From a virus, in the IMG/VR virus record IMGVR_UViG_3300005323_000021: a stretch of 41,798 bases of DNA. The stretch is one strand, 5' to 3'. Below, one piece after another: positions 3,414 to 36,310 of the stretch. Numbering within the stretch: the stretch's first letter is position 1; each line of letters starts with the position of its first letter. A program made the translations under genes and the position numbers. The notes under the pieces are model-generated. The model saw only the letters and a list, made by a program, of their open reading frames with translations, was not told where the DNA came from and searched no databases.

Positions 3414-3589
3414 TCCTTATTTTTCTTCAGCCGGCACCCGGTCCGTTTTGCGTATTCCTCCCCGCACGTTTTGTTGTGGAATAGCCCCGGAAGTTTTGTC
3501 GATGCTTTCCGCTTTTCGTAGATCGCCTTTTCCATCTCAAAATGCTTACCGCATCCAAGACAGATTACCCATACGCGATTTTCTTTCAT
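3392..3589 (-). CDS. Zinc-ribbon miniprotein (65 aa)
   Basis: WVICLGCGKHF ... HNKTCGEEYAKR. The pattern is shared with the 39624..39869 product (W--C--CGK-F ... C---C---YAK). Confidence 0.55.
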   Translation of the reverse strand: MKENRVWVICLGCGKHFEMEKAIYEKRKASTKLPGLFHNKTCGEEYAKRTGCRLKKNKECATKCA

Positions 3590-3717
3590 TCCTCACCCTC
3601 GCGCTTCGCTGGCTTGATCGGGCAGCTACGATCCGAGTACCTTTCCTGACACTTGCCGTCCCGGGTCATGCACTTATCGATGCCACGGCTATTTTTTCCG
3701 AATTTGGGGCAGATCAT
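3586..3717 (-). CDS. 43-aa Cys-rich miniprotein, paralog family B (copy 1)
   Basis: MICPKFGKNSRGIDKCMTRDGKCQERYSDRSCPIKPAKREGEE. The ATG at 3717 forms ATGA with the RNA ligase stop. The first 36 nt are 35/36 identical to the copy at 4601..4732. Confidence 0.6.
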   Translation of the reverse strand: MICPKFGKNSRGIDKCMTRDGKCQERYSDRSCPIKPAKREGEE

Positions 3718-4604
3718 TGAATGTCCCTCAACCGTTTCTGATAGTATTGATGTAGGTTCTTTGGACCTGTTGAATTGTGCTTTTTGCATTCATCTCCAAC
3801 ATATCGGGCAATAAGGGGCATGGCTATGCGGATCTCTTTAAACTTTTCATCACCAATATCAGTGCGAACCTTTTCAATAGCCCCATAAATCTCAGAGTCT
3901 GGCAAGTCTGGAAGGATGACGAATCCGGGTTGATCACACCTTGGTATTTTCTCCAGAGCCGGCAGATCGTTCTTTTCCTTGAAGTACGTGATAAACCGAG
4001 AACATCCGGCGCCATCGCCGCGATTAAATGGGGTCTCTCCCCACGCTTTCCCGACGGTCCCTTCTCGCGCACATTCCTTTGCTTTTTCAAGCATACGGTC
4101 TTTGAATGCATACAGCGCCTCAATGGTGTTCACGTTGCATGTTCCGTATAATTCTACAACCGGAATACCGAAATGGTGACATTGTTGGTACACGCCATTG
4201 TAATTCATGAACGATCCAGAACCACCATACATGCTTTGATCCCAGATATCGAACACGATAAACTCGTTTTTATCGTGGGTTTCTATTCGGGTCGGGCTTT
4301 TACCAGTTGTGAGCATTTCACCGAAAATAACGTATTCCTTGCCCCAATTTGAGGCGTCCTGTAATAGTTCGATGATACTGGTTGCCTGATCTGATGCATT
4401 GAATGATTTATAGAAATCCTCCGATGCCTTATCCCGGTTGCGGCTCCGTAACTGTACGCCATCTTCTGTGAGGTATGCGCCAATATTAGATCCGTCCCGT
4501 TTCTCAGTCCAAAAGATCTCCTGCCCGAGCAGGATCTCGGGGTTTGGTTTCAGATTATATATCCGTTCAAGATGTGGGTATTTAATTTTGGTAATGTCCA
4601 TCAT
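3714..4604 (-). CDS. ATP-dependent RNA ligase (Rnl2/PF09414-like nucleotidyltransferase)
   Basis: Covalent nucleotidyltransferase motifs occur in order: I TEKRDGSN (KxDG), III VIFGEM, IV EGTVGK, V YFKEKN. At 296 aa with no OB-fold extension it looks like an RNA ligase rather than a DNA ligase. Confidence 0.7.
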   Translation of the reverse strand: MMDITKIKYPHLERIYNLKPNPEILLGQEIFWTEKRDGSNIGAYLTEDGVQLRSRNRDKASEDFYKSFNASDQATSIIELLQDASNWGKEYVIFGEMLTTGKSPTRIETHDKNEFIVFDIWDQSMYGGSGSFMNYNGVYQQCHHFGIPVVELYGTCNVNTIEALYAFKDRMLEKAKECAREGTVGKAWGETPFNRGDGAGCSRFITYFKEKNDLPALEKIPRCDQPGFVILPDLPDSEIYGAIEKVRTDIGDEKFKEIRIAMPLIARYVGDECKKHNSTGPKNLHQYYQKRLRDIQ

Positions 4605-4732: not shown

Positions 4733-4890
4733 TGAGGCAACTCCCCGACAAAATTACATTTGCGACATATGATTTGTGCACCAAAATTCCCTTCGGCAGC
4801 AGTTCGACCGATATCTTCTACAGTATCCCCGCATTTCGGGCAGCGCGTGGTTATCGCCAAAACTTCAAAGTAATTTTCATCTTCGCTCAT
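4729..4890 (-). CDS. Zinc-ribbon miniprotein (53 aa)
   Basis: MSEDENYFEVLAITTRCPKCGDTVEDIGRTAAEGNFGAQIICRKCNFVGELPQ has two CxxC pairs. ATGA overlaps at both ends. Confidence 0.5.
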   Translation of the reverse strand: MSEDENYFEVLAITTRCPKCGDTVEDIGRTAAEGNFGAQIICRKCNFVGELPQ

Positions 4891-5514: not shown

Positions 5515-5835
5515 TCACCACGCATCGAGCGTATCCTCAAATTCTCCCATGTCCTTGACCCCCAGAGCGACAGCCTGATCACGGGCATCTGAAAGTTCCC
5601 GATTGAGCCGGGCCATGTCTGTTTTGATGGTCCTGATCCTGATTGCAAGAGCCTTGAGATTATCCGGCTGCTCCATTTTAAGGTGCATACGGAGCGCCCG
5701 GTTAATGACGTTTGTGAGGTTGCAGCCGGGACGATTGACGGCATTGAACAAGTCTCGGTCGATCTTGACGTGCCTATCCACCGGACCGTTCTGTTTCCTC
5801 GGCCGGCCTGGTTTGCGTGGTGGAACATCATTCAT
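5515..5835 (-). CDS. Putative ribbon-helix-helix DNA-binding protein with a coiled-coil tail
   Basis: A basic N-terminal arm (PRKPGRPRK) is followed by VKIDRDLFNAVNR...LTNVINRALRMHL, a beta-alpha-alpha pattern, and then a heptad-like tail. Confidence 0.5.
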   Translation of the reverse strand: MNDVPPRKPGRPRKQNGPVDRHVKIDRDLFNAVNRPGCNLTNVINRALRMHLKMEQPDNLKALAIRIRTIKTDMARLNRELSDARDQAVALGVKDMGEFEDTLDAW

Positions 5836-6238
5836 CGTTCACCATTCGATCCTTTTCTAAGCGCCGCTCATTCGCAAATGCCTCATAGTATTCCGTGGTG
5901 TCGTAATCCTCGTCATCAGGGTCAACACCCTCGTTATATGGAGACGGGACTTTACGGAGGGCCACATCTTGGAATATTTTGCCCCAACAAACATCCTCGA
6001 CTTCGAGGCACCATTCTCCGTCTTCACGGCAAAGATCTCGCTCCTCGGCAATGCGCTTCAGGAACGCTTCGTAAGCGACGGGTTCTGAATCGTACGTGTC
6101 GAATTGGCCATCAGAAGACAAAACAAACCATTTCTCTCTGATAATCTTTGGGATGTATGTTTCAGAGTGATAGTTATTGGGATGCCAAACCCCGCGTATC
6201 CACGCGCCGGGTTTTCCATTTTCTATCGATGGCTTCAT
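5828..6238 (-). CDS. Hypothetical protein (136 aa)
   Basis: Co-directional ORF; acidic, with no recognised motif. Confidence 0.55.
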   Translation of the reverse strand: MKPSIENGKPGAWIRGVWHPNNYHSETYIPKIIREKWFVLSSDGQFDTYDSEPVAYEAFLKRIAEERDLCREDGEWCLEVEDVCWGKIFQDVALRKVPSPYNEGVDPDDEDYDTTEYYEAFANERRLEKDRMVNDE

Positions 6239-9494: not shown

Positions 9495-10097
9495 TCATGC
9501 ACGCTCCATAATTTCATCAGGGTCGTATACTCCGGACACACTGAACGCTTTTCGCAGGCAAACTGATTCCGCCACCTTGATTAGCATCACTGATGGTTTG
9601 GTCTGCCAGAGCCCTTTATATCCGCTTTTCGGGATAGGCTGGACGTACTCATCGAACCGGACCTCGGTCTTGAAGGAGTGCGTCATATCCTTACGCCAGA
9701 TCTCACACCACGCGGTAACGGGGACCTCTTTCCCCTCTTTATCCTTCACGTAGTTAACACCGGAGTTCATCCCGTCGAATTGTCCTGATCTGTGAGCTAT
9801 TGCCAGCATCCCGTCACGCCCTACCATGATCAGGGCGGCGTCGCGTTCGTTGCGCTTGATCGCCCAAATCTGTTTGACCAGGGGGTCCAGACCGTATGTT
9901 TTCGCCATGTACATCATCAGCTTGAACTCGGGCTCAGTACAGTCTTTGGCGATCACATTGCGGAGAAGGATCATTTCATCGTTGGAATACTTCGGTGCTA
10001 GTGCCACGGTATCTGTTGGCACGATTGCCGCCGGGATAATAGCCGGTGCGTCTTCAGGTTCCTGCTTTGGCGGGATCTCAATATAACTCTGGGTCAT
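9495..10097 (-). CDS. recT: RecT/Bet-family single-strand annealing recombinase
   Basis: YGLDPLVKQIWAIKR...IMVGRDGMLAIAHRSGQFDG...WCEIWRKD is the typical RecT/Bet core. Confidence 0.75.
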   Translation of the reverse strand: MTQSYIEIPPKQEPEDAPAIIPAAIVPTDTVALAPKYSNDEMILLRNVIAKDCTEPEFKLMMYMAKTYGLDPLVKQIWAIKRNERDAALIMVGRDGMLAIAHRSGQFDGMNSGVNYVKDKEGKEVPVTAWCEIWRKDMTHSFKTEVRFDEYVQPIPKSGYKGLWQTKPSVMLIKVAESVCLRKAFSVSGVYDPDEIMERA

Positions 10098-14094: not shown

Positions 14095-14400
14095 TCAGCC
14101 CTGTTTTTTGCAGTCTGTCCCGTCAAATGAGATGGCCGCCGCCTGCGCCCACCTCATGATCTCCGTCTCCTGCGCTGCCAGATACTGTTTGATCTCGGTA
14201 AGTGACCCGCTCCCGATATCCCCGAGATCGAGTTGCCAGGGCATCCGTTTCTCCGAGTAATTATAACTCGTTCTGGGTTTCCCGCACATGGGGTCTTCGG
14301 TTGTCACTTTCACGACATTCCAGCGTACGCGAAGATCGCAGACGCCATTAGTGATGCTGTCAAGCATAATGGGTTCCGGTTTGGTGTTTGAATTTGGCAT
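14095..14400 (-). CDS. Hypothetical protein (101 aa) immediately downstream of the DGR RT
   Basis: Co-directional ORF. Not obviously helical or basic, so not Avd-like. Confidence 0.55.
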   Translation of the reverse strand: MPNSNTKPEPIMLDSITNGVCDLRVRWNVVKVTTEDPMCGKPRTSYNYSEKRMPWQLDLGDIGSGSLTEIKQYLAAQETEIMRWAQAAAISFDGTDCKKQG

Positions 14401-14401
14401 T

Positions 14402-15406
14402 TTAACCTCCTAATGGTACTGCCAGGGCCGGCACTACATACTTTTGAGCGAGCCGGTGGCTGTCGCACCATTTCAGCCAGCCGTGATAACTGCTCACCAC
14501 ATTTCTGTCGTGGCGGGTTGCTGTGCTGAACCTCCTGATCCGGGTAAGTTTCCGTTTCAGATTTTTTGCGGTCGTCTTTCTCAACAGGGTGTAGTGCCCG
14601 AAGCACCGATACCCGACAAAATCAATCCCCCGCACGAATGTTGGGAATACCTGCCAGTTCTCTTTGATTTTTAAGGACAAATTCTCCTGAAGGTATTGCT
14701 CGATCCTCCCGTGCAGCTCGTGCAGGAGGGTTTTGTCGTGGTGCAGGATCACCATATCGTCACAATATCGGTAATAAAAGTCAATGTGCTCGGACTCTTT
14801 GAGCCAGTGATCGAAGTCGTTCAGGTACAGGTTCCCAAAGAACTGTGATAGGTAGTTCCCAATCGGGACCCCATCGGCACTGTCAATCACGTTGTCCAGG
14901 AGTGCGAGCACATCGGGATCCTTGATCTTATGCCGGACCGTTGCCTTCAGGATGTCGTGATTGATCGACGGGTAAAATTTCTTGATGTCGAGTTTCAGGC
15001 AGTATTTTGTTGCCTGCCTGTCTTTCAAGTCACTGCGCAGTGTCCACAATGCCTTATGGATCCCCCGGTTTTTGAGACTTGAATAGGTCCTTGTTATCAA
15101 GGTGTTCATCCAGATCGGTTCAAGGACTTGCACGACCCCCCACTGGATTATCCTGTCGGGATAATAGGGCAAAACAAAGATTTCCCGTTCTTTCGTCCGG
15201 TCGAATTTCTTGAACGTCTTATATTTTGATGTGCGGTATGTTTTGCTTACGAGCAATTCCCTGACATTCCCGAGATATCGTTCCGGATCGGCATCGACCA
15301 TCCGGACTTCGTGGTAATGGGTTTTGCCTTTTCGCGCGTTGGCGTGAGCCCGGGCTATGTTTTTAGGATCGCAAATTTTATCAAAGAGATACCCATACCG
15401 TTTCAT
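14402..15406 (-). CDS. DGR-type reverse transcriptase
   Basis: RT motifs occur in order: LPYYPDRIIQWGVVQVL, LDIKKFYPSINHDIL, GVPIGNYLSQFFGNLYLNDFDH (the DGR-typical IGxxxSQ), YYRYCDDMVIL (YxDD) and GIDFVGY. At 334 aa it has no maturase or endonuclease domains. Confidence 0.9.
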   Translation of the reverse strand: MKRYGYLFDKICDPKNIARAHANARKGKTHYHEVRMVDADPERYLGNVRELLVSKTYRTSKYKTFKKFDRTKEREIFVLPYYPDRIIQWGVVQVLEPIWMNTLITRTYSSLKNRGIHKALWTLRSDLKDRQATKYCLKLDIKKFYPSINHDILKATVRHKIKDPDVLALLDNVIDSADGVPIGNYLSQFFGNLYLNDFDHWLKESEHIDFYYRYCDDMVILHHDKTLLHELHGRIEQYLQENLSLKIKENWQVFPTFVRGIDFVGYRCFGHYTLLRKTTAKNLKRKLTRIRRFSTATRHDRNVVSSYHGWLKWCDSHRLAQKYVVPALAVPLGG

Positions 15407-15543
15407 ATGGGCATCCTTCTTTGTAGGCCAACCGAGCGTTCGAAGTATCCGGGGGTGATAGATACCCTACCAGCACGGGGTTTTTCGTTGTTCTGTTTTG
15501 CCAAGAGGCAAGGTTTTGCGGGGTTACAAAATGATAATACAAA

Positions 15544-15660
15544 GTTCACTAGGTGAGTGCCAATATTACGATTGACATTCGACGTAGCATTATTCAGATT
15601 CCAATTGAAAGTGCCTGCATTCGCTGCATTATTCCAATTGCCGCCGAGTAGTGCCGCTCC
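15544..15660 (-). repeat. DGR template repeat (TR)
   Basis: This 117-bp non-coding segment aligns without gaps to 15714-15830 (offset 170). The sense strand is adenine-rich and translates as GGNWNNAANAGTFNWNLNNATSNVNRNIG (AAY codons). Confidence 0.85.
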
Positions 15661-15707
15661 TCCTCGCTTGAAACCCATTCTCATATTATTCACACCCCCA
15701 TAAAAAA

Positions 15708-17618
15708 TTAGCGGAAGACCAGGCGAGCGCCAATAGCACGAGGGACATGCGACGCAGCACCATACAGACCCCAATTGAAGGCACCGGCACCAACGCCACC
15801 ATACCAATAGCCGCCGAGCAGAGCCGAGCGATTGCCGGTTGTCTGGTAGTAGTAGTCACAGAGGTACTGGTTGTCTGCTCCACCAACGGTCAGCGGTAAG
15901 AATGCGTAGTCGATTGCCGATGAGAACGCGATTGACACTCCGTAATTATTGGTAGATGCGAGCGTGAATCCGGTGTCTACGTATGGATCTGTGAATACGT
16001 CGCTGGCGAAATCGTGATCTGCAACCCACGGGTTTCGGTCGGCTTTGATATTCAGCCCGTCAATCCATGACCAAATATTTCCGTAAAAGTTTTCGATCCC
16101 GAAGATGCTGAATGCTTTTGCTGCCTGCCCGGTTTTGTAATGCGTGACGAGCGGGCACTCTCCGGATACGTTACCGAGATCAACGCCATTGGTGCCCACA
16201 CCAGCAGTGAATCCCGTGTTGATGGCATTGTTGAACGTTGCTCCTGCGGTCGCGTCGGTGATATCCACCACGCCGCGATAGACTGCCTGCGAGTTGAGTG
16301 TCGCGTTCCGGATGATGAACAGCAACTGGACGGCACACGCACTATTGAAGTCCAAGAGGTTCCAGCCGGCGCCGCGATTCTGTGCGAGTTGCCGGAATGC
16401 TGCCAGTGTTGCACCGGCGTTATTCCAACCGCTTGCCGGCTTGACCCCGGCCACCGAGCAGAGCAGATCGCCCGTTGTCGCCGTGAAATCATAACCGTTT
16501 GCATCGTTGAGGACGTACCCCCCGGCGCCGGCGTTTGTTTTGGTGATCGTGGATGTCACTCCACACGCTGTTGGCATCAGGACCGTGGTTTTCAGCCCGT
16601 TGGATCCGGCAGTGTACGTGAGCGTGTCAGCCGCTGTTTTTGCTGGAGTCCATGTAGTCCCCTGATAACTGGTTTTTACACCGGCTGCAACGATTTTGTC
16701 AACGACACCCTCAACGGTGTCTGTATCGAGGATCGCAACGGTAAATACATAGTTGCCGTCAAGGGTAATAGTGAGGTTTCCGCTGCTGGTCGGTTCTGCC
16801 GTGATTTGAATAGTGTTCACGCACGCGGCGGCGGGGGCGGTGACATCATAGACCGAACCCTCAAAGGCAGACACATAGATAAAATCTTTCTCGACTGAAT
16901 CAACAATGAAGGCAGGGTGTACCTTGAATCCTGGCAGGAGAACCGCTGAGATTACGTACCGGTACTTGTTTGTGAGGGCATACACGCGGTAATAAAATTT
17001 TGGGATCTGGACCATGACCTGTCCGTTTGATCCCGTATACGAGAAGGTTGCGTCACCGTAATACGCGTTCACAGCTCCGGCGTCTGATAGATTGCACCGC
17101 CGAATTGCTCCGAAGATTGGGTGCCGGGCGAAATCCGTTGAATATAGTGGCGTAGCGTTTCCAAACTGGTCGACATGTACCAGAGTGGGGCTTGTCGAGT
17201 TGGTGGTCCATTCAACTCCGATAGGTAGACCACCAGCAAGCGCCCCGTTGAGTGCAATGAAATTTTCCCGGATATTGTTGTAAATCCCGGTGGTAAACAT
17301 AACGGCAATACTTGTGCCCTCAACGTGAGATTTTGCCGCGCCGATCGACCCATCCGCATTCAGACCACGAATGGCCCCCGTAAGGTTTCCCGCCCCGGTG
17401 GAGGCAGACCTGCCCGTAATTCTAATCTCCTCTGCATACGTCTGAGTTGCATTATCGTACCCAATCCCTAGTCCGCTGGTTATCAAGTTGCCGTCATCAT
17501 CAGAAAACGCAGCCAGATCCAGCACCGGTATTGATGTTGCCGAGGCGTTTATACCGGGCGCTGCAATCGTAGTAGATATGCTGTTCTTTTTGAGCTTTCC
17601 AAGTTGTGAATATGCCAT
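15708..17618 (-). CDS. Tail fibre / receptor-binding protein, DGR target, with a C-terminal FGE/C-type-lectin-like variable domain
   Basis: 636 aa in the tail module. The C-terminus carries FYGNIWSWIDG ... LLGGYWYG ... IGARLVFR, typical of CLec-fold DGR variable proteins. The VR occupies the 3' end. Confidence 0.8.
   Translation of the reverse strand: MAYSQLGKLKKNSISTTIAAPGINASATSIPVLDLAAFSDDDGNLITSGLGIGYDNATQTYAEEIRITGRSASTGAGNLTGAIRGLNADGSIGAAKSHVEGTSIAVMFTTGIYNNIRENFIALNGALAGGLPIGVEWTTNSTSPTLVHVDQFGNATPLYSTDFARHPIFGAIRRCNLSDAGAVNAYYGDATFSYTGSNGQVMVQIPKFYYRVYALTNKYRYVISAVLLPGFKVHPAFIVDSVEKDFIYVSAFEGSVYDVTAPAAACVNTIQITAEPTSSGNLTITLDGNYVFTVAILDTDTVEGVVDKIVAAGVKTSYQGTTWTPAKTAADTLTYTAGSNGLKTTVLMPTACGVTSTITKTNAGAGGYVLNDANGYDFTATTGDLLCSVAGVKPASGWNNAGATLAAFRQLAQNRGAGWNLLDFNSACAVQLLFIIRNATLNSQAVYRGVVDITDATAGATFNNAINTGFTAGVGTNGVDLGNVSGECPLVTHYKTGQAAKAFSIFGIENFYGNIWSWIDGLNIKADRNPWVADHDFASDVFTDPYVDTGFTLASTNNYGVSIAFSSAIDYAFLPLTVGGADNQYLCDYYYQTTGNRSALLGGYWYGGVGAGAFNWGLYGAASHVPRAIGARLVFR
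15714..15830 (-). repeat. DGR variable repeat (VR), covering the last ~39 codons of the target gene
   Basis: Hand alignment to the TR gives 36 mismatches, 28 of them at TR sense-strand adenines; 28 of 35 TR adenines differ. VR peptide: GGYWYGGVGAGAFNWGLYGAASHVPRAIGARLVFR. Confidence 0.85.
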
Positions 17619-18100: not shown

Positions 18101-18538
18101 TCACGGAGACGCCACTGTCTGACTCATCCTACACCGGAGTTCCCCGATTGGGAACTGAACCGGATCGCCATTGAGTACATTGCGCGATGCTTGGAACGGT
18201 GCGAGATATAGCATGTTCCCGCTCGTTGCAGCGTCAAAGACTGCCCAATGCGTGATTACGCCCCAATCAGATCCGGCTGTCCCAAAATCAACAATAGTGG
18301 CGTTGGCAATCGATCCGAGCGGGGATACAAAGGTTGCAGATGCCCAATCGGTATCCGCCATCTTTTCCCGTGCATAATTGGTATCCGTTACCGTGGACAG
18401 TTCCGCGCCGGCTCCTAACGGATATCCGTCGTACAATGCGACGTAAACATCCGCCGGGATGGTGAAACTCGCTTTTCCCATTGCATGATCAAGCAATTTC
18501 TTGATCAGATATTCGCTTGCTCCTTCGTAATCCGTCAT
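18101..18538 (-). CDS. Tail/baseplate-associated hypothetical protein (145 aa)
   Basis: Directly follows Dit with an ATGA overlap. No firm family assignment. Confidence 0.55.
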   Translation of the reverse strand: MTDYEGASEYLIKKLLDHAMGKASFTIPADVYVALYDGYPLGAGAELSTVTDTNYAREKMADTDWASATFVSPLGSIANATIVDFGTAGSDWGVITHWAVFDAATSGNMLYLAPFQASRNVLNGDPVQFPIGELRCRMSQTVASP

Positions 18539-19110
18539 AATACCTCATACTGAATTGTTACGTCGAACCCGTCAATGGCGGATGCGCCGTTGTTCACGAT
18601 GCTGATCTTTGCCGGGGTCGATACGGTGCCCGATGATTCAACCTCAAAACTGGCCGGGGATGTGGTGATCTCTTCAGCCACATAATCCGCTGCTTCGTAG
18701 CCATACGGATCATCGGCGACCAGTTCTAGCGTAAACTCCGAGCACCCCACCCATGCCCGATCAAATGGCACGCCGCCGGAGTACCGGACAGTATACGTGA
18801 TAGTCGGGGCATCGTCGAATATTAACGCCAGCGCCCGGGGTTTCCCGTTAACGTCCACGAGCGCCCGGGCGAACGCCTTGATCAGCACGTCAAGGGCCGC
18901 CGAATCCGCACAGTCCCGGAAATCGCAGGGGAGCGAGAACCGGCGCTGTCCGACATCAGAGCCAAACCAGTACACCCCATCTCTCCCAGGGATCTCCGCT
19001 GTGCGATCCCGGGTTTCCGGGAGCATGGGAATGCTCGGGCCGTATCGCAATGTGATGCCATACGCAGAAGCAGCGACGCCATCCAAAACAAAGCCACCAT
19101 TATCGACCAT
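18535..19110 (-). CDS. Distal tail protein (Dit, siphovirus tail family)
   Basis: FVLDGVAASAYGITL...RDRTAEIPGRDGVYWFG is a typical Dit N-terminus. Position is immediately after the tape measure gene. Confidence 0.7.
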   Translation of the reverse strand: MVDNGGFVLDGVAASAYGITLRYGPSIPMLPETRDRTAEIPGRDGVYWFGSDVGQRRFSLPCDFRDCADSAALDVLIKAFARALVDVNGKPRALALIFDDAPTITYTVRYSGGVPFDRAWVGCSEFTLELVADDPYGYEAADYVAEEITTSPASFEVESSGTVSTPAKISIVNNGASAIDGFDVTIQYEVL

Positions 19111-21557
19111 TACGCTTTCCTCCTCATTTCACTTGTGATATACGTGCCGAGTTCCCTTGCGAGTTTCGGGATATCCGCATCTTCCCGGATAACGAACGTG
19201 TTGCCTGTGATGGTTACGCCCGTTCCGCCATTGCCGGACAACGGGGTTACGGTTGCGCCGGTTGGCAACGTCAGGATCTCCGGGCCGGATTCCCCCACCA
19301 TGACATTCCCGGGGCTGGTGATCTCCCCCCCGGATGCAAGGCGCGGGATAGACTGGATATCAAATCCCGAAGTGATGCCCCCGAGCGATGAGACGGAATT
19401 GAACCCATCGATCAGTGAATTGATACCGTCAATCACCGTATTGATAGGCCACTTGATCGCATCGGCAATACCGGATACAATCCTGCCAATAGCCTCCGCT
19501 GCCCACTCAAAAGGCTTAATCATATTGGTGCCGATCTGGTCGAAGTTGCCCGATACAAGCGCAATGATGCCCGCCCCAAGCGATGCCAGCGGTGACGCAA
19601 TGATCATCAAAACATCCTGTGCCCACTGCGGAGCGATGGCCCCAAACAGCGCACCGAGTTTTCCCATGAAGTCAAGGAATCCGGTTTTGAGTAGTACCCA
19701 AACCCCTGCAAGCCCGAGAGCGATACCGGCTGCGATGCCAGCGAACAGTGAACCTGATAGGACCGCTCCTGCCTCAGTAAGAATTGGGGTAAGCCATTTC
19801 CACGCGAGACCGAACGACTTAACAAGATCCGGGAGTTGTGCGAGTCCGACAACCAGCGGCCCGCCGATTGCCAGAGCGCCCGATAAATCAGATATCGGCT
19901 CGGCAGCCGTCCCGGCTTGAAGGGTAAGTTTTTCCATTGCGGAGGCGAGGCGATCCGTTGCGGAGATCGCCTTCTCATTGGCATCTGCATAGGCTTTCGC
20001 GGCGCCTGTTGAATCAGTGAGAATCTTCTGTTGTGCTGCCGCGAAATCCGCGTCCGAGATACCGAGCGACGTTACAACTTCTGTCTTACTGGGTGCCGGC
20101 TTCGCGGCCTCTTCCCTTAATTTGCGCAGTTCTTCCGTCTGTTCTGCTATTTGGGCATTGGTATCCTCAAACCGATCTGCATAGGATTCCTGCACACGGG
20201 CAACGGCTTCGGAGGTATCCAGCGTTGTTGCCAGTTCTTTGTTGTAATCTTCGGCGGCTTTAGTCGCCGATTCTTGCAGGTCTTCGCGCCGTTCTGCATA
20301 CTGCTTTTCGACCGCTGCAACCTCTTTTGTAGTGTCTTGGATCTCTGCCAGCCGCTCGTTGTACTCTTCGGTACTTTCAGCGGCATCGTCTGCAAGATCG
20401 GCCCGGCGCTCTGCATACCGCTCTTCCAGATCGGCAACCTTCTTTGCATTACCGGACCAATCCAGCGGATTAAGCCGGGCCTCGTATTCGAGATCCGCTT
20501 TTTCCTTTGCATAATCGGCTTCGAGATCGGCGAGGGCTTTGGCTTCCCGCTTCTGCTCTTTGGCCCTGGATTTATCAAGCGCCGCAACGTCTTCTGTGGT
20601 GTCCTTTGCCTCATTAAGAGCGTCTTGATAATCCTTTTCAAGATCTATGAGATCTTTCTTTGCATCAGCCAGCCGCTCGTTGTATGCCAGTTCCAGCCGT
20701 GCAACTTCTTTGGATGTGTCGCCGGCATCTTCAAGCGCCCGGGCGTAATCACGTTCCAGCCGGGCTAACGACTTCTTGGAATCCGCTAACCGACTCTCCG
20801 CTGATATGACATTCTTTGCTGCATCCTCTGATTTCGTCAGCGCCGAATTGTAATCCGATATCGCCGTGCGGAGTTTCCGCACTGCCACTGATGCCGGGAT
20901 ACCTGCGTTGGTCATTGCCAGTAACAGTGCTTCGGTATCTTCAAGGGAAAAACCAAGACCGTTTAACGTGGTTCCAAGTGAGCCGAGGACAGATGCCAGC
21001 TCCGAATAATCGATCAGGCTGTTGTTGACAAGGTATGCGATGCTGTCCATGTGATCGCCAACCTCAGTCAATGGGATGTCATAGGCATACATCGCTGGGA
21101 TCATCGAATCGGCAACTTCTGCCGCCGATGCCCCCACCGCATCGCCGAGAGTATCGAACTCTTTTGCAAGGGTCTGGATAGTTGCGGTACCAGTGACACC
21201 GGCCCGGCCTAACAGGCTGAATGTCGATACCACATCATCGAGCCGGAATCCCGCATCAGAAGTACTCAGCGCAAGATCCCGCATCTCTTCCGTAGTCGAT
21301 CCAATGGTGAGGGCCGTTACGCCTAATTTGGCGTTCATCTCGGCGGCATACTTGGTAGTGGTGGCAATCGTCAGCGCCGCGCCTTCCATCGCCAGACCGA
21401 TCGCTAAAGAGTACTGCTTGATGACCTGTTGGCCGCGGGAAAATGCCTTTTCGACTTTTGACAGTTCGATATCGGCTTGTCCGAGACCTTTGATCAGCCC
21501 GTCAATATCCGCCGTTATCGGGAATGAAAGACCTTTTGCAAACGCTTCAAGTCCCAT
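19110..21557 (-). CDS. Tail tape measure protein
   Basis: Largest tail gene (815 aa), following the chaperone pair. It has a central acidic coiled-coil repeat region, G/A/I/L-rich membrane-like segments, and an AGGAGGG Shine-Dalgarno sequence upstream. Confidence 0.85.
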   Translation of the reverse strand: MGLEAFAKGLSFPITADIDGLIKGLGQADIELSKVEKAFSRGQQVIKQYSLAIGLAMEGAALTIATTTKYAAEMNAKLGVTALTIGSTTEEMRDLALSTSDAGFRLDDVVSTFSLLGRAGVTGTATIQTLAKEFDTLGDAVGASAAEVADSMIPAMYAYDIPLTEVGDHMDSIAYLVNNSLIDYSELASVLGSLGTTLNGLGFSLEDTEALLLAMTNAGIPASVAVRKLRTAISDYNSALTKSEDAAKNVISAESRLADSKKSLARLERDYARALEDAGDTSKEVARLELAYNERLADAKKDLIDLEKDYQDALNEAKDTTEDVAALDKSRAKEQKREAKALADLEADYAKEKADLEYEARLNPLDWSGNAKKVADLEERYAERRADLADDAAESTEEYNERLAEIQDTTKEVAAVEKQYAERREDLQESATKAAEDYNKELATTLDTSEAVARVQESYADRFEDTNAQIAEQTEELRKLREEAAKPAPSKTEVVTSLGISDADFAAAQQKILTDSTGAAKAYADANEKAISATDRLASAMEKLTLQAGTAAEPISDLSGALAIGGPLVVGLAQLPDLVKSFGLAWKWLTPILTEAGAVLSGSLFAGIAAGIALGLAGVWVLLKTGFLDFMGKLGALFGAIAPQWAQDVLMIIASPLASLGAGIIALVSGNFDQIGTNMIKPFEWAAEAIGRIVSGIADAIKWPINTVIDGINSLIDGFNSVSSLGGITSGFDIQSIPRLASGGEITSPGNVMVGESGPEILTLPTGATVTPLSGNGGTGVTITGNTFVIREDADIPKLARELGTYITSEMRRKA

Positions 21558-31139: not shown

Positions 31140-32588
31140 TTATACGGCGTAATCATCGGCGATGTGATACACCGTTTTGCGTTCCCCTACCCTACCTACT
31201 GACAGATACCATAAGGCCATGCTGGTGCAATCCACATCATCGTCGTGTACCGAATCATCGGGGAATGCAACCATGGTCTCAATGTAATCATTCATCCAGT
31301 GCGCCCCGGCGGGGAACTGGCATAAATGTGCCTGGAATATCGGGGTGATGGATTCCGCCCGGGCTCGTTTATCTGCAAGAGGGAGCGGGTTTATTGGCAA
31401 CACGGGGATCCGGTGCGGTGATTGCCGTAACGACTGGATCAGGCTTTGCCCGCTGGCTTTGTCCTCTACCAGCACGACGTTGGGCCTGTGCTGCAAGTAT
31501 TGCCCTTCAGCAGCTTGCACCAATGCGGGGTACTCGACGCGGCCTTTCCACCGGTCCATCTTGAAGTACCCTTGATTATTCATCCCCCACGTCTGGCATA
31601 CTGAGAAGTCCGGGTCTGTAGTGCCCCCGGTCTTTTTCTTGACTGGGACTTTGAAAGCAGTATCCCATACCTGGATTTTCAGGGGCCATAGGTATTCTGC
31701 GAACAGCGAGGGATCGTATAACCGGGTGAACCATTCGCGCCTAAATACGTCGCCTGCTGTTGGCCGGACTTTCCAGTTTCCATGCAGGAGCCGCATCATT
31801 TCGACGTATGGTAACGCCATGAGGTTTGCCCGGTACTGCGGATCTTTCGATGTGAGCGCCGGGTTATCGGTCAGTTTCGCGGGGATAAACGTAAGGGACC
31901 GTGGCGGGATATCGGGATATTCCTCTGCGAGTTCTTCCGGGCTATCAGCCCACCGTAAGACGTTGTTCACCCGGACGAACCACCGGACCAGCCCGGCCCG
32001 TTCTTGGATTGGGAACCCGGTCGCCTGATCGATCCACCACGCGATGAGTTTAGTTACCCATCCCCCCACCGGATCGTCATCAGGGACCGGGTTACACGTT
32101 GCCCTGACGTATGGCCTTACCCCGCACACGGACCGGTTACGGGATAAAAGATACCAGAACTGGAACTCAGTAAAATGAGTGAGTTCGTCGAACTCTATGA
32201 GCGGGATTTGAGCCCCCTGATAATCATAGACATGCCGCTCATATTCAAGGTGTGCCATTTTCACGCTGTTGCCGTACGGAGGGAACACCCATTTGAGATC
32301 GGACCGGTTCGACGATGCCCCAATCAGCGGGTATATCTTCGCGGCCTCTTCCCATAATCCCCCCTGGCTGGTGATCTGCGGAGTTGTGCGGCGGAAAATA
32401 GTAGCACCGAAGCCCGGGACTGTCGGGATATAATGCAGCGGCTCAAGCAGTTCCCCGTACGTCTTCCCGGACCCGGCAGCGCCCCCATAAATAGCGATAT
32501 CGGCGGGTGTGGATAGAAACGCTTCCTGAGGCCCTGCCTGCGGGCGAATGTCGATTTGTTGTGGTTGCGGTGCGGTTGCCGCCATCAT
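31140..32588 (-). CDS. terL: Terminase large subunit
   Basis: Walker A IYGGAAGSGKTYG near the N-terminus. 482 aa. Overlaps the TerS stop. Confidence 0.85.
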   Translation of the reverse strand: MMAATAPQPQQIDIRPQAGPQEAFLSTPADIAIYGGAAGSGKTYGELLEPLHYIPTVPGFGATIFRRTTPQITSQGGLWEEAAKIYPLIGASSNRSDLKWVFPPYGNSVKMAHLEYERHVYDYQGAQIPLIEFDELTHFTEFQFWYLLSRNRSVCGVRPYVRATCNPVPDDDPVGGWVTKLIAWWIDQATGFPIQERAGLVRWFVRVNNVLRWADSPEELAEEYPDIPPRSLTFIPAKLTDNPALTSKDPQYRANLMALPYVEMMRLLHGNWKVRPTAGDVFRREWFTRLYDPSLFAEYLWPLKIQVWDTAFKVPVKKKTGGTTDPDFSVCQTWGMNNQGYFKMDRWKGRVEYPALVQAAEGQYLQHRPNVVLVEDKASGQSLIQSLRQSPHRIPVLPINPLPLADKRARAESITPIFQAHLCQFPAGAHWMNDYIETMVAFPDDSVHDDDVDCTSMALWYLSVGRVGERKTVYHIADDYAV

Positions 32589-34264: not shown

Positions 34265-34921
34265 TTATTGTATCAGTTTGATCTCTTGGCCGGGGAACGT
34301 GTCCAACTTCGGAAGATAGCAACTTCCGCCATACTGCTCATTGATAATCTGGGTGAAATGCTCCTGCCAATACTCCCGATTAAATCCCGTCTTTGAGTGG
34401 CAGGAATGACATAAGGCAACAAATAGAGGAATGGAATTGTCGCAGCACGTTTTCTTATTGAAATTTACGTGGTGAACGTGCAACTTAACGCCATTCTGCG
34501 GTGCTCCGCATTCAACGCATTTATGGCTGAAGAAAGACCGAACCCTTTCTCTGAACTCGTTATTAAATTTCGGGCAGTATGGCTCGAAGGATATGCCGCC
34601 CTTCCAGAGGTTGCACTTCTCGCCACGGTTTGCCAGACTTAATTTTAATCGGGTTTCTGGTGACGGGTTGTGTTTTCCTTTGTTAGATTCACTTGATTTT
34701 CTCTTTGATTCCTCTCGGTGATGTGTCCCGTATCTGGGATTGTTCTCACCCCGGTTGAGTTCACTCAATTTTTCCCGCGTTTCCGAGGATACTTGTTTGC
34801 CTTTTTGAGCGGCCCTCATCCGTTCTCGGGTTTCGGGAGATGCTTTTTTTCCCAGACGTGCCGCCCGTAGTTTTTCTCGCTTTATTCTGTCTTTCTCTGG
34901 ATCGGCGCACACTCCACGCAT
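34265..34921 (-). CDS. Homing-type endonuclease: NUMOD3 repeats plus a C-terminal HNH domain
   Basis: NUMOD3-like repeats SPETRERMRAAQKGK, SSETREKLSELNRG and SPETRLKLSLANRGEK, then CVECG...LHVHHVNFNK...ALCHSCHSK. A/T-richer than the structural genes. Confidence 0.75.
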   Translation of the reverse strand: MRGVCADPEKDRIKREKLRAARLGKKASPETRERMRAAQKGKQVSSETREKLSELNRGENNPRYGTHHREESKRKSSESNKGKHNPSPETRLKLSLANRGEKCNLWKGGISFEPYCPKFNNEFRERVRSFFSHKCVECGAPQNGVKLHVHHVNFNKKTCCDNSIPLFVALCHSCHSKTGFNREYWQEHFTQIINEQYGGSCYLPKLDTFPGQEIKLIQ

Positions 34922-36310
34922 TTAATCGCCCTCCAAAAGAACCGGCATCTTGTTAAAGGTGGTCTTATAGCGTTCAAGACAAACTGCCACGTACCCGGGG
35001 TCCACTTCCACGCCCCGGCACTTCCTCCCTAAATTCTCGCATGCGATCATGGTGGTACCGGATCCGAGGAATGGCTCATAAATTGGTGATTCTTTATTTG
35101 AGAATGCGGTTATAAACCACGCTGCCAACTTTACAGGAAACACCGCGGGGTGATCTATACTTTCTGAATTGGGGGAGATCTCGATCACATTTCCCGGTCT
35201 GGCAATCCCTTTCTTTGTTTTTCCACCCACGGTTATATTCCCGCTTTTTCCTTGTGACGGGTTTGTCGGAGAATATTCTCGTATATTCTCCGACACTGTT
35301 CCAACATCCAGAGGGTTAAATATAATCTCCTTGTTTTTTGAGAACTGAAAACACGGTTCAAAGTCATTTCTAAACCGGTTATTCCATCCTCCCGGTATGC
35401 CTTTGTGATACCAGATCAGATCGTCAATATATCTGAATCCAATCTCCTCTTTTAGTGCGATTACAAGTTTTTTCACATAGAGGATTCTTTCACCATCATC
35501 ACAATTCTCTTTTATATTGAGAATGAAACTGCCTTTATCAGAGAGAATATTTTTTATATTTTCTGCAACGCCTGAGAACCATTTAACATACTTCTCTGGG
35601 GCAATGCTGGCATATTGTCCTTTTCTCTGTTCTGCATAAGGTGGGCTTGTAAAGCATAGATCCGCCTTCTCACCCTGCATCACCCGCTCAACAACCGCCG
35701 GATCCGTGCAATCCCCGCAGATCACCCGGTGATCGCCGCATTGCCACATCTGCCCCAGCTCGGTGCCCCACTCTTTCCGCAGTTCCTCCGATCTTGATAT
35801 CTGCGGTTCGGCGTCTAATGGCTCATCGTCCTTGTGGAGATCCCTGAGCATCCCGTCAAACTCAATATCATCAAACCCGGTGAACTCCAGCATATCATCG
35901 AGTTTCAATTCCTGCAAGTTGATCGTGAGTTGCCCGATATCCCAATCACCCTGTGCTTTGTTCAGGGCAATATTGGCAGCGTTCTCCTCTTTCTCAGACA
36001 GTTCCTTGAGATCCGCTTCTGCAAAGGCCCACGTATACGCCCCGAGCGCCACGGTGTACAGTTCAGTGTATCCCTGCGAATCCAGGACTTTAATTCTCTG
36101 GTGGCCACCCAGGATCTTCCGGGTGCGGGTATTGAAGATGATCGGGTCCAGTTGCCCGAACTTCTCCACGCTCTTATTGATCTTCTCAAACTCCGGATCG
36201 CCTTTCTTGAGATCCTTACGCGGATTCTTTGCATCCGGTATCAGGTGCGCCAACAGGATTTTACCGAGCCCTGCCGGGATTGGTTGCTCTTTAAGTGGAT
36301 TTTGTTTCAT
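34922..36310 (-). CDS. ParB-like nuclease domain fused to a beta-class DNA methyltransferase (N4-C or N6-A)
   Basis: ParB-like N-terminus (NPRKDL...FGQLDPIIFN...ILGGHQR). Motif IV FTSPPY precedes motif I EPFLGSGTT, the beta-class order. Confidence 0.8.
   Translation of the reverse strand: MKQNPLKEQPIPAGLGKILLAHLIPDAKNPRKDLKKGDPEFEKINKSVEKFGQLDPIIFNTRTRKILGGHQRIKVLDSQGYTELYTVALGAYTWAFAEADLKELSEKEENAANIALNKAQGDWDIGQLTINLQELKLDDMLEFTGFDDIEFDGMLRDLHKDDEPLDAEPQISRSEELRKEWGTELGQMWQCGDHRVICGDCTDPAVVERVMQGEKADLCFTSPPYAEQRKGQYASIAPEKYVKWFSGVAENIKNILSDKGSFILNIKENCDDGERILYVKKLVIALKEEIGFRYIDDLIWYHKGIPGGWNNRFRNDFEPCFQFSKNKEIIFNPLDVGTVSENIREYSPTNPSQGKSGNITVGGKTKKGIARPGNVIEISPNSESIDHPAVFPVKLAAWFITAFSNKESPIYEPFLGSGTTMIACENLGRKCRGVEVDPGYVAVCLERYKTTFNKMPVLLEGD

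Follow-up and report, generated by a model that had tools for sequence, protein, structure and literature searches.

A probable Avd-less diversity-generating retroelement with a tail-fibre-like target in the tail module of a siphovirus-like phage genome

The stretch of DNA analysed here, IMG/VR virus record IMGVR_UViG_3300005323_000021 (41,798 nucleotides, the whole of which is called the window below), very probably carries a diversity-generating retroelement (DGR) inside a phage tail module. The element follows the order target gene, template repeat (TR), reverse transcriptase (RT), with no detectable accessory protein Avd, and would rewrite the receptor-binding tip of a tail-fibre-like protein through a variable repeat (VR) at the 3' end of the target gene. 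An earlier note, made from the letters of the sequence, had proposed a DGR that rewrites the tip of a tail-fibre gene; every testable part of this proposal held, namely the type of RT, the adenine bias, the location and the fold of the target. The parts of the element are as follows.

15708-17618, minus strand: target gene, 636-aa tail-fibre-like variable protein (PHROG 5302 'tail protein', 6.7e-77)
15714-15830, minus strand: VR, last 39 codons of the target gene, with the mutagenised zone at about 15732-15826
15714-15731, minus strand: candidate initiation of mutagenic homing site (IMH), GGCGCTCGCCTGGTCTTC, the G+C-rich 3' boundary of the VR
15544-15660, minus strand: TR, non-coding, with 35 adenines
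15544-15561, minus strand: IMH*, GGCACTCACCTAGTGAAC, the 3' end of the TR
14402-15406, minus strand: DGR-type RT, 334 aa (Pfam RVT_1; PHROG 1423, 7.5e-113)

Adenine-specific differences between the two repeats

TR and VR align without gaps at an offset of 170 nt, and a scripted count gives 36 mismatches between them. Twenty-eight of these lie where the TR has an adenine (A>G 15, A>C 7, A>T 6). Changes thus affect 28 of the 35 TR adenines and 8 of the 82 other bases (p=1.3e-13, Fisher exact test). The pair was also recovered by an independent repeat finder (15548-15656 and 15718-15826, 72% identity) and by a blastn self-scan. The coordinates, the mismatch count and the adenine count put forward in the earlier note were therefore reproduced exactly by the script, and the adenine bias came out again with each of the three programs. 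The peptides that it quoted, the 334-aa RT with GVPIGNYLSQ and YRYCDDMVIL, the 636-aa target and the 137-nt distance between TR and RT are all present. Its extent of 117 bp for the repeats needs trimming: the pair itself is real, but homology runs only from about 15548 to about 15656, the outermost bases are not alignable, and the last 18 nt form an IMH*/IMH-type boundary outside the mutagenised zone. Within that zone itself (TR 15562-15656), 22 of 29 adenines and 5 of 66 other bases differ (p=3.7e-11).

Read in the frame of the target, the TR holds eleven AAT codons and one AAC, and 25 of the 29 TR adenines of the mutagenised zone occupy codon positions 1 or 2. The translated peptides are GGNWNNAANAGTFNWNLNNATSNVNRNIG for the TR and GGYWYGGVGAGAFNWGLYGAASHVPRAIG for the VR. 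No second VR was found in the window, where no other site shows 25 or fewer non-adenine mismatches of 77; as no other place resembles the TR once adenines are ignored, the element has a single target. The VR is separated from the TR by 53 nt (15661-15713), and the TR from the RT gene by 137 nt.

The last 18 nt of the two repeats correspond to the IMH and IMH* of the literature, and would have the function that these have in the DGR of phage BPP-1. At every adenine of the TR IMH* the VR carries a guanine (VR GGCGCTCGCCTGG, TR GGCACTCACCTAG). The same fixed A/G differences are found again in the related loci L084, L001, L090, L091, L093, L004 and others.

These related loci come from a set of 89, assembled from RT relatives in IMG/VR and from contigs encoding close homologues (handles beginning with L). 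Each was scanned against itself with blastn, and repeat pairs were kept if at least 70% of their mismatches fell at one base. An A-biased TR/VR pair was present in 71 of the 89 loci and a T-biased pair in none. In all 71 the A-rich copy lies next to the RT gene and the other copy upstream. This recurrence bears on one alternative, in which the RT belongs to another class (group II, retron, Abi or DRT) and the repeat is a duplication of the 3' end of the gene that drifted towards A+T. A bias that is specific for strand and base, reaches p=1e-13 and turns up in 71 loci, each time towards the RT-proximal copy, is beyond what drift could generate.

As a separate observation, a distant low-GC branch of the RT clade (L040-L080) has one short TR of about 70-85 nt and two to three VRs in tandem target genes; in L041, for example, the TR lies at 5822-5891 and the VRs at 4856, 5233 and 5635. 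The earlier note was silent on four features treated below, the missing Avd, the RT-17 RNA of the spacer, a helix bracketing the TR and five clustered non-adenine mismatches.

A reverse transcriptase of the DGR type

The RT contains the motifs IGNYLSQ and YCDD. The first conforms to [I/V/L]GxxxSQ, the signature of DGR RTs, in place of which group II and retroviral RTs have QGxxxSP (PMC7826257). When all PDB sequences were searched, the best match was 8ub7_A (328 aa, 3e-37, residues 2-319 against 3-315), and the next one was a group-II-like RT at 2e-18. On sequence grounds we take 8ub7_A to be the Bordetella phage RT (bRT), because its residue numbering (K29, F66, I76, D138, I181, G182, D215) agrees with the residues that a cryo-EM preprint names for bRT. 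Counterparts of bRT K29, F66, R74, I76, D138, I181, G182, Q187 and D215/D216 are all conserved in the window RT; R74 and I181 of bRT have been shown to promote adenine mutagenesis (PMC7826257). The closest annotated phage RTs are those of Psychrobacillus phage Perkons and of crAss-like gut phages, with 49-53% identity over the full length.

An RT of another class could be suspected from the labels attached to such proteins. The top NCBIfam model is that of group II RT/maturase (TIGR04416, 112 bits), weaker matches are obtained with Drt3a, Drt2 and retron models, and homologues are labelled 'retron-type reverse transcriptase' in their sources. All these models nevertheless stay far below their cut-offs: 112 against 300 bits for TIGR04416, 72 against 200 for Drt3a, 60 against 390 for Drt2, 59 against 235 for the retron model (St85), 19 against 250 for AbiA and 18 against 450 for Drt4. 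The signature is IGxxxSQ and not QGxxxSP. The protein has the size of bRT, carries no maturase or endonuclease domain, and finds its best PDB match in bRT over its full length. Moreover, at the Rfam gathering threshold no group II intron or retron RNA was detected in the window; RT-17 was the only RNA reported. Taken with the recurrence of the adenine bias, this alternative is effectively refuted, and the earlier assignment of the RT to the DGR type, as opposed to group II, retron or Abi enzymes, is borne out by the sequence comparisons.

The target protein and its hypervariable tip

The target gene sits between Dit- and Tal-type genes, which, together with the match to PHROG 5302, supports its reading as a tail gene, as had been proposed. 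Residues 1-132 form an N-terminus specific to this phage, and residues 133-636 a module shared with other DGR phages that ends in a domain of the C-type-lectin type. No Pfam or NCBIfam domain was found in the target, and no PDB relative by sequence. An AlphaFold2 model was examined by structure comparison. Built on an alignment of 99 sequences, it reached a predicted local distance difference test (pLDDT) value of 85, with residues 130-636 above 90. Foldseek searches of the PDB placed TaqVP (5vf4) first (8e-9), followed by five Mtd variants (1yu0-4, 7e-3 to 3e-2) and TvpA (0.17). In BFVD the best matches were proteins named 'tail collar fiber' or 'tail fiber', down to 4e-38. The model thus predicts that the tip of the target has the C-type-lectin fold of DGR variable proteins. 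The FGE/C-type-lectin-like C-terminus announced in the earlier note is accordingly supported as a predicted fold, through TaqVP, Mtd and TvpA, but not as a Pfam FGE or C-type-lectin domain.

Sequence variation in the family coincides with the template. At the eleven residues templated by AAT codons, column entropy among the 99 homologues is 3.1-3.8 bits. VR codons with no adenine in first or second position have a mean of 1.3 bits, and the remainder of the protein 1.43 bits. Because the entropy peaks at the AAT-templated columns, the family as a whole has been diversified exactly where the TR has AAT.

A working DGR might still act on some other tail-associated or host-interacting protein, with no switch of tropism. 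The lack of a Pfam domain and of a solved homologue by sequence leaves room for this reading, as do the names of the homologues: 948 were found, and the 120 listed are all unnamed or called 'hypothetical protein'. Homologues occur in cellular contigs of metagenome-assembled genomes (MAGs) too, and the downstream 785-aa Tal-like protein, which has a Phage_Tail_Tip domain, could be the primary adhesin. Against it stand the position between Dit- and Tal-type genes, the PHROG 'tail protein' match, the tail collar and tail fibre matches in BFVD, the Pfam Mtd_N domain carried by a few of the homologues, and the finding of a large metagenome survey that viral DGR targets are mostly tail proteins. We consider a target of this other kind very unlikely, and a tail-fibre-like receptor-binding protein remains our reading.

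The nearest annotated homologue of the target belongs to Methanosarcina virus MetMV (30% identity; L098, MK170447.1 43266-44762), with no RT adjoining. Target homologues are also present in a Methanomassiliicoccales MAG, and among the RT homologues one bears the label Thermococci archaeon (entries P0186, P0113).

Structured RNA around the template repeat

Three RNA elements could be delineated on either side of the TR.

15662-15676, minus strand: 5' arm of a long-range helix, GGGUUUCAAGCGAGG, placed by positional homology to the covarying helix of the clade
15512-15523, minus strand: 3' arm of the same helix, CCCCGCAAAACC, abutting hairpin 1 of RT-17
15421-15515, minus strand: RT-17 spacer RNA, Rfam RF03020 (cmscan 45.5 bits, gathering threshold 40.4, model positions 1-95 of 95)

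The RT-17 RNA fills the spacer between TR and RT and ends 14 nt before the RT start codon. It is found at the equivalent position in 11 of 14 related loci (L001, L003, L004, L005, L007, L016, L024, L035, L084, L090 and L093), and both of its hairpins show compensatory changes. The motifs RT-1 to RT-19 were described for their proximity to RT genes, and RT-17 was given no function (Weinberg et al. 2017, PMC5737381). A link to a DGR was made for RT-10 alone, as the TR-RT spacer of BPP-1, and the authors speculated that other motifs might have such a link too (PMC5737381).

Across the clade, the 3' arm of the helix consists of the 12 nt directly 5' of RT-17 hairpin 1 and the 5' arm lies 15-65 nt upstream of the TR. 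As the arms stand on either side of the TR, the helix encloses it. In 36 non-redundant loci, the best ungapped complementarity averaged 10.4 of 12 when both arms came from one locus and 8.6 of 12 when they came from different loci, and values of at least 11 were obtained in 18 of 36 within-locus as against 38 of 1234 between-locus comparisons. The between-locus comparison is the fairer control, because the 5' arm was itself located by complementarity. When the arms were aligned, 83.8% of the cells were paired against 56.6% in shuffles, and none of 500 shuffles reached 83.8%. Changes on both sides occurred at 11 of the 12 pairs, and controls shifted in register gave 34-45%. The helix is visible only in searches restricted to the arms; long-window duplex searches gave non-significant results, and the global minimum free energy fold of the TR-spacer region was no better than that of shuffles (z=+0.98).

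In the BPP-1 ribonucleoprotein, a duplex between sequences upstream and downstream of the TR stops cDNA synthesis, and this duplex has been surveyed in Avd-containing DGRs only. The helix that brackets the TR here resembles the BPP-1 'cPRT Stop' duplex, in a clade devoid of detectable Avd. By analogy with BPP-1, the RNA that flanks the TR may also have a role in priming.

Two further complementarities on the minus strand were observed in the same region. GGGGGUG (15693-15699, just past the target stop codon) is complementary to CACCCCC (15451-15457), an insertion in the loop of the second RT-17 hairpin. A matching pair, GGGGGUGG and CCACCCCC, is present in L003 (about 5672-5680 and about 5950-5958), and relatives that have no loop insertion have no G-run. 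The pair could be a tertiary contact or the G-run a leftover ribosome-binding site; the latter is conceivable because L100, a related fibre locus, has GGGGGG before the small reading frame p101 described below. The second pair joins CUUUGUA, 3' of the TR (15536-15542), to UACAAAG (15418-15424), upstream of the ribosome-binding site of the RT. Both sides, which overlap the Shine-Dalgarno sequence, are invariant, show no covariation and recur in most close relatives. They could form a duplex of the template-primer type or could be mere conserved Shine-Dalgarno context.

Missing parts, the p101 reading frame and the state of this copy

Two more segments are needed to describe what is absent or altered in the window and in its relatives.

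14095-14400, minus strand: p101, a small acidic open reading frame (ORF) of 101 aa that starts 1 nt past the RT stop codon
14405-15694, minus strand: TR-spacer-RT core segment of about 1.29 kb, absent from the related fibre locus L100

Several observations weigh against the reading of the locus as a DGR that rewrites the fibre tip. A Pfam search of the whole window detected no Avd (PF05635) at E<=0.01 in any small ORF, and Avd is essential in the model system. No G+C-rich inverted repeat, hairpin or terminator-like site was found after the VR. The TR-bracketing helix is interrupted and weak in the window (-15.2 kcal/mol, p=0.13), although it is significant in the closest relatives L084, L001 and L090 (p<=0.002). 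The VR/TR pair has five clustered non-adenine mismatches (TR positions 15626, 15623, 15622, 15613 and 15610), which imply that the last homing event was partial, drew on another TR allele or took place long ago. Over 13.0, 10.8 and 3.5 kb respectively, contigs from ERZ27247097, SRR5248198 and JGI 3300001866 match the window at 100% identity, also in the VR. Finally, two close relatives have lost, or do not have, parts of the element. In L090 (IMGVR_UViG_3300035208_001625, 3523-4010) the VR, TR and RT-17 are kept, but a deletion has left only the last ~35 nt of the RT ORF. In L100 (GCA_043955465.1, JBINOF010002956.1, 2600-3130) the fibre gene is followed directly by a p101 homologue.

The absence of Avd is no bar to membership among DGRs, because avd is also absent from 26% of 372 curated DGRs (about 74% have it), Architecture A1 being the bare TR-RT core (PMC5758913). 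In one of the RT lineages avd is missing from all members (Wu et al. 2018, PMC5758913). In the window, the gaps between VR and TR and between TR and RT are too short for an ORF. Likewise, the G+C-rich inverted repeat 3' of the IMH is known from about 34% of DGRs and is not universal (Wu et al. 2018, PMC5758913).

The reading frame p101 was considered as a possible replacement for Avd. Comparisons with Pfam, NCBIfam, PHROG and GenBank phages gave no match to it, a word-index search for homologues returned 2 proteins, and its AlphaFold2 model (pLDDT 68) gave no significant fold match. A small ORF lies at the RT stop codon or within a few bases of it in about 81 of 83 clade members (loci L001-L094). 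These ORFs fall into four sequence families, three acidic (including p101 and phrog_18126) and one basic (phrog_19665, isoelectric point about 9, from the low-GC clade with two VRs); by Pfam, none of the four is Avd. p101 moves together with target residues 133-636, TR and RT across phages whose other tail genes are unrelated, and it keeps its place next to the fibre gene both in L090, where it follows the remnant of the deleted RT, and in L100, which has no TR-RT part. This association led us largely to reject p101 as a stand-in for Avd. Because it is kept with the fibre gene once the RT is gone, p101 is more likely a partner of the fibre, for example an assembly factor, than a DGR factor. 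It is distinctly unlikely, in our estimation, that the clade uses an Avd-independent form of mutagenic retrohoming in which the helix and RT-17 would do the positioning in Avd's place, perhaps assisted by a p101-type ORF.

The structure of L100 delimits the core. It aligns with the window from 17089 down to 15695 at 74% nucleotide identity, and no TR or RT was found within the 6.7 kb that were fetched. From this junction, the core is delimited to about 1.29 kb.

The five non-adenine mismatches indicate that the present VR was not freshly written in full from the present TR. Among the seven closest elements, each VR/TR pair has 0-1 non-adenine mismatches, except in the window and in L090. The L090 VR has 8 such mismatches with its own TR and only 2 with the TR of the window, and this better fit shows that TR alleles have been exchanged between lineages. 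In the window, the odd segment of the VR, GGC GTT GGT GCC GGT GCC, resembles that of L100 (GGC GCT GGT GCC GGT GCC). Partial homing that covered the 3' two-thirds of the VR, a different TR allele, or ordinary substitutions are all possible causes. A relaxed pattern for a 'parental' TR allele that would account for the five mismatches gave 0 matches in IMG/VR, and the exact TR segment, searched for copies associated with other VRs, gave 0 matches in JGI metagenome contigs. No diversification at the population level was seen across the three matching assemblies, which are identical elsewhere too. These identical assemblies therefore say nothing either way on diversification within the population.

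The most serious alternative is that the element is a genuine DGR by descent that is now inactive or decaying. Its VR would then be a frozen record, and RT, TR and RNA would be intact because the decay is recent. Five non-adenine mismatches where intact relatives have 0-1 fit this history, as does the likeness of the odd segment to cassette-less L100, which suggests that the segment was inherited and not newly copied from a template. Four assemblies share one VR sequence, the bracketing helix has weakened here, and close relatives have already lost the RT (L090) or lack TR and RT (L100). On the other side, the RT is encoded at full length and retains every catalytic and template-contacting residue, the TR has kept its 11 AAT codons, and RT-17 scores above the gathering threshold. 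There is no non-adenine mismatch in the 3' two-thirds of the mutagenised zone, and the four assemblies, being identical everywhere, may represent one clonal population. Non-adenine differences have moreover been documented in curated DGRs that are regarded as functional (PMC5758913). On balance an inactive or decaying copy appears rather unlikely, and we retain the reading of an Avd-less DGR that rewrites the tip of the fibre.

Proposed mechanism

If the element works along the lines of BPP-1, a transcript containing the TR, enclosed by the long-range helix and followed by the RT-17 RNA, would be bound by the 334-aa RT. The enzyme would copy the TR into cDNA, presumably by priming in cis, and would misincorporate opposite adenines, nearly all of them at the first two bases of the eleven AAT codons. 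The cDNA would then replace the homologous VR at the 3' end of the target gene, the direction of homing being set by the IMH in the VR as against the IMH* in the TR. Some 11-15 surface residues of the tip, with its predicted C-type-lectin fold, would thereby be recoded, and the receptor specificity of the phage would be altered. Cis-priming, homing, the effect on tropism and the present activity of this copy are all modelled on BPP-1.

The phage and its tail module

The window represents the genome, about 42 kb long, of a siphovirus-like phage, and the minus strand carries nearly all of its genes. Besides the element, the following genes were located.

31140-32588: terminase large subunit
19110-21557: tape measure protein (PhageMin_Tail)
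18535-19110: Dit (Sipho_tail)
1573-2172, 34922-36310, 3714-4604, 9495-10097 and 34265-34921, minus strand: methyltransferase, RNA ligase, RecT and NUMOD3-motif genes

A Mu-F-like head protein and a major capsid protein are also encoded. The tail module further includes a Gp80-like protein and one of 156 aa that weakly matches the C-terminal domain of Dit; then come the 636-aa target, the RT, the 101-aa ORF and the 785-aa Tal-like protein (Prophage_tail and Phage_Tail_Tip domains). With Dit, tape measure and Tal genes around it, the DGR locus lies inside the tail module. A megablast search with the locus found no relative at the DNA level among GenBank phages. A comparison of the terminase large subunit with GTDB genomes, made for host assignment, gave only two weak, uninformative matches. 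No tRNA genes were found in the window, and no integrase was seen among the scanned ORFs of the phage.

Two DNA adenine/N4-N6 methyltransferases, one Dam-like and the other N6_N4_Mtase, are encoded by the phage as well, as are an RNA ligase, a RecT recombinase and a protein with a NUMOD3 motif.

Comparison with known systems

The closest parallel is the BPP-1 DGR (mtd-avd-TR-brt). Both elements are phage-borne, with target (VR), TR and RT on one strand, and in both the VR makes up the C-terminal end, ~40 codons long, of a receptor-binding tail protein whose fold is that of C-type lectins (predicted for the window) and differs from the TR by adenine-specific mismatches that arise from AAY codons. 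They also share the G+C-rich IMH as opposed to IMH*, an RT of about 330 aa with IGxxxSQ, R74 and I181, a structured RNA that separates the TR from the RT, and a duplex in which sequence 5' of the TR pairs with sequence 3' of it. Unlike BPP-1, the window has no avd and no inverted repeat after the IMH, and its spacer contains RT-17, whereas that of BPP-1 contains the sister motif RT-10. The target is also different: it has 636 aa, its N-terminus has no Pfam Mtd_N match, and its full-length model is nearer to TaqVP than to Mtd.

In its gene order, target-TR-RT with no recognisable accessory gene, the element agrees with the Avd-less Architecture A1 and Lineage 3 DGRs (PMC5758913). Accessory-free DGRs form a substantial minority, for which Avd-independent homing has been proposed (Wu et al. 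2018, PMC5758913). The CH1 accessory protein described there is acidic and has 160-169 aa (PMC5758913), whereas the acidic ORF that follows the RT here has 101 aa.

TaqVP (5VF4), Mtd (1YU0-1YU4) and TvpA (2Y3C), the best structural matches of the target (E values of 8e-9, 7e-3 and 0.17), are all DGR-diversified proteins of the C-type-lectin fold. Sequence identity to them is 12-15%, and global template modelling (TM) scores are low (0.3-0.5) because the target contains further domains, one set N-terminal and one beta-rich in the middle. Whereas the target here is encoded by a phage, TaqVP and TvpA are of cellular origin. The DGRs of crAss-like gut phages (e.g. cr55_1) are akin to the element in their RTs, and the tail fibre of cr55_1 is among the best structural matches of the target. 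These phages and Perkons nevertheless have other backbones and hosts and no similarity at the DNA level, and the small ORF that follows the RT does not occur in GenBank phages.

Phage DGRs that diversify tail fibres have been known since 2002. A large metagenome survey has catalogued tens of thousands of DGRs. As the class is long known and widely catalogued, the element, which is structurally complete, adds a member and not a concept, and what is new is modest and confined to three points. The natural states observed among relatives, intact, RT-deleted and without TR-RT, delimit a core of about 1.3 kb and could guide the engineering of a minimal DGR. A TR-bracketing duplex like that of BPP-1, with strong covariation, also exists in a clade without detectable Avd. 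Lastly, as in the definition of the RF03020 family (PMC5737381), RT-17 matches over the full model immediately upstream of an RT gene. In the window and 11 relatives, beyond what was published, it stands exactly between the TR and a DGR RT and is preceded by the covarying helix, so that this orphan Rfam motif now has a place, as the spacer between TR and RT in one clade of DGRs.

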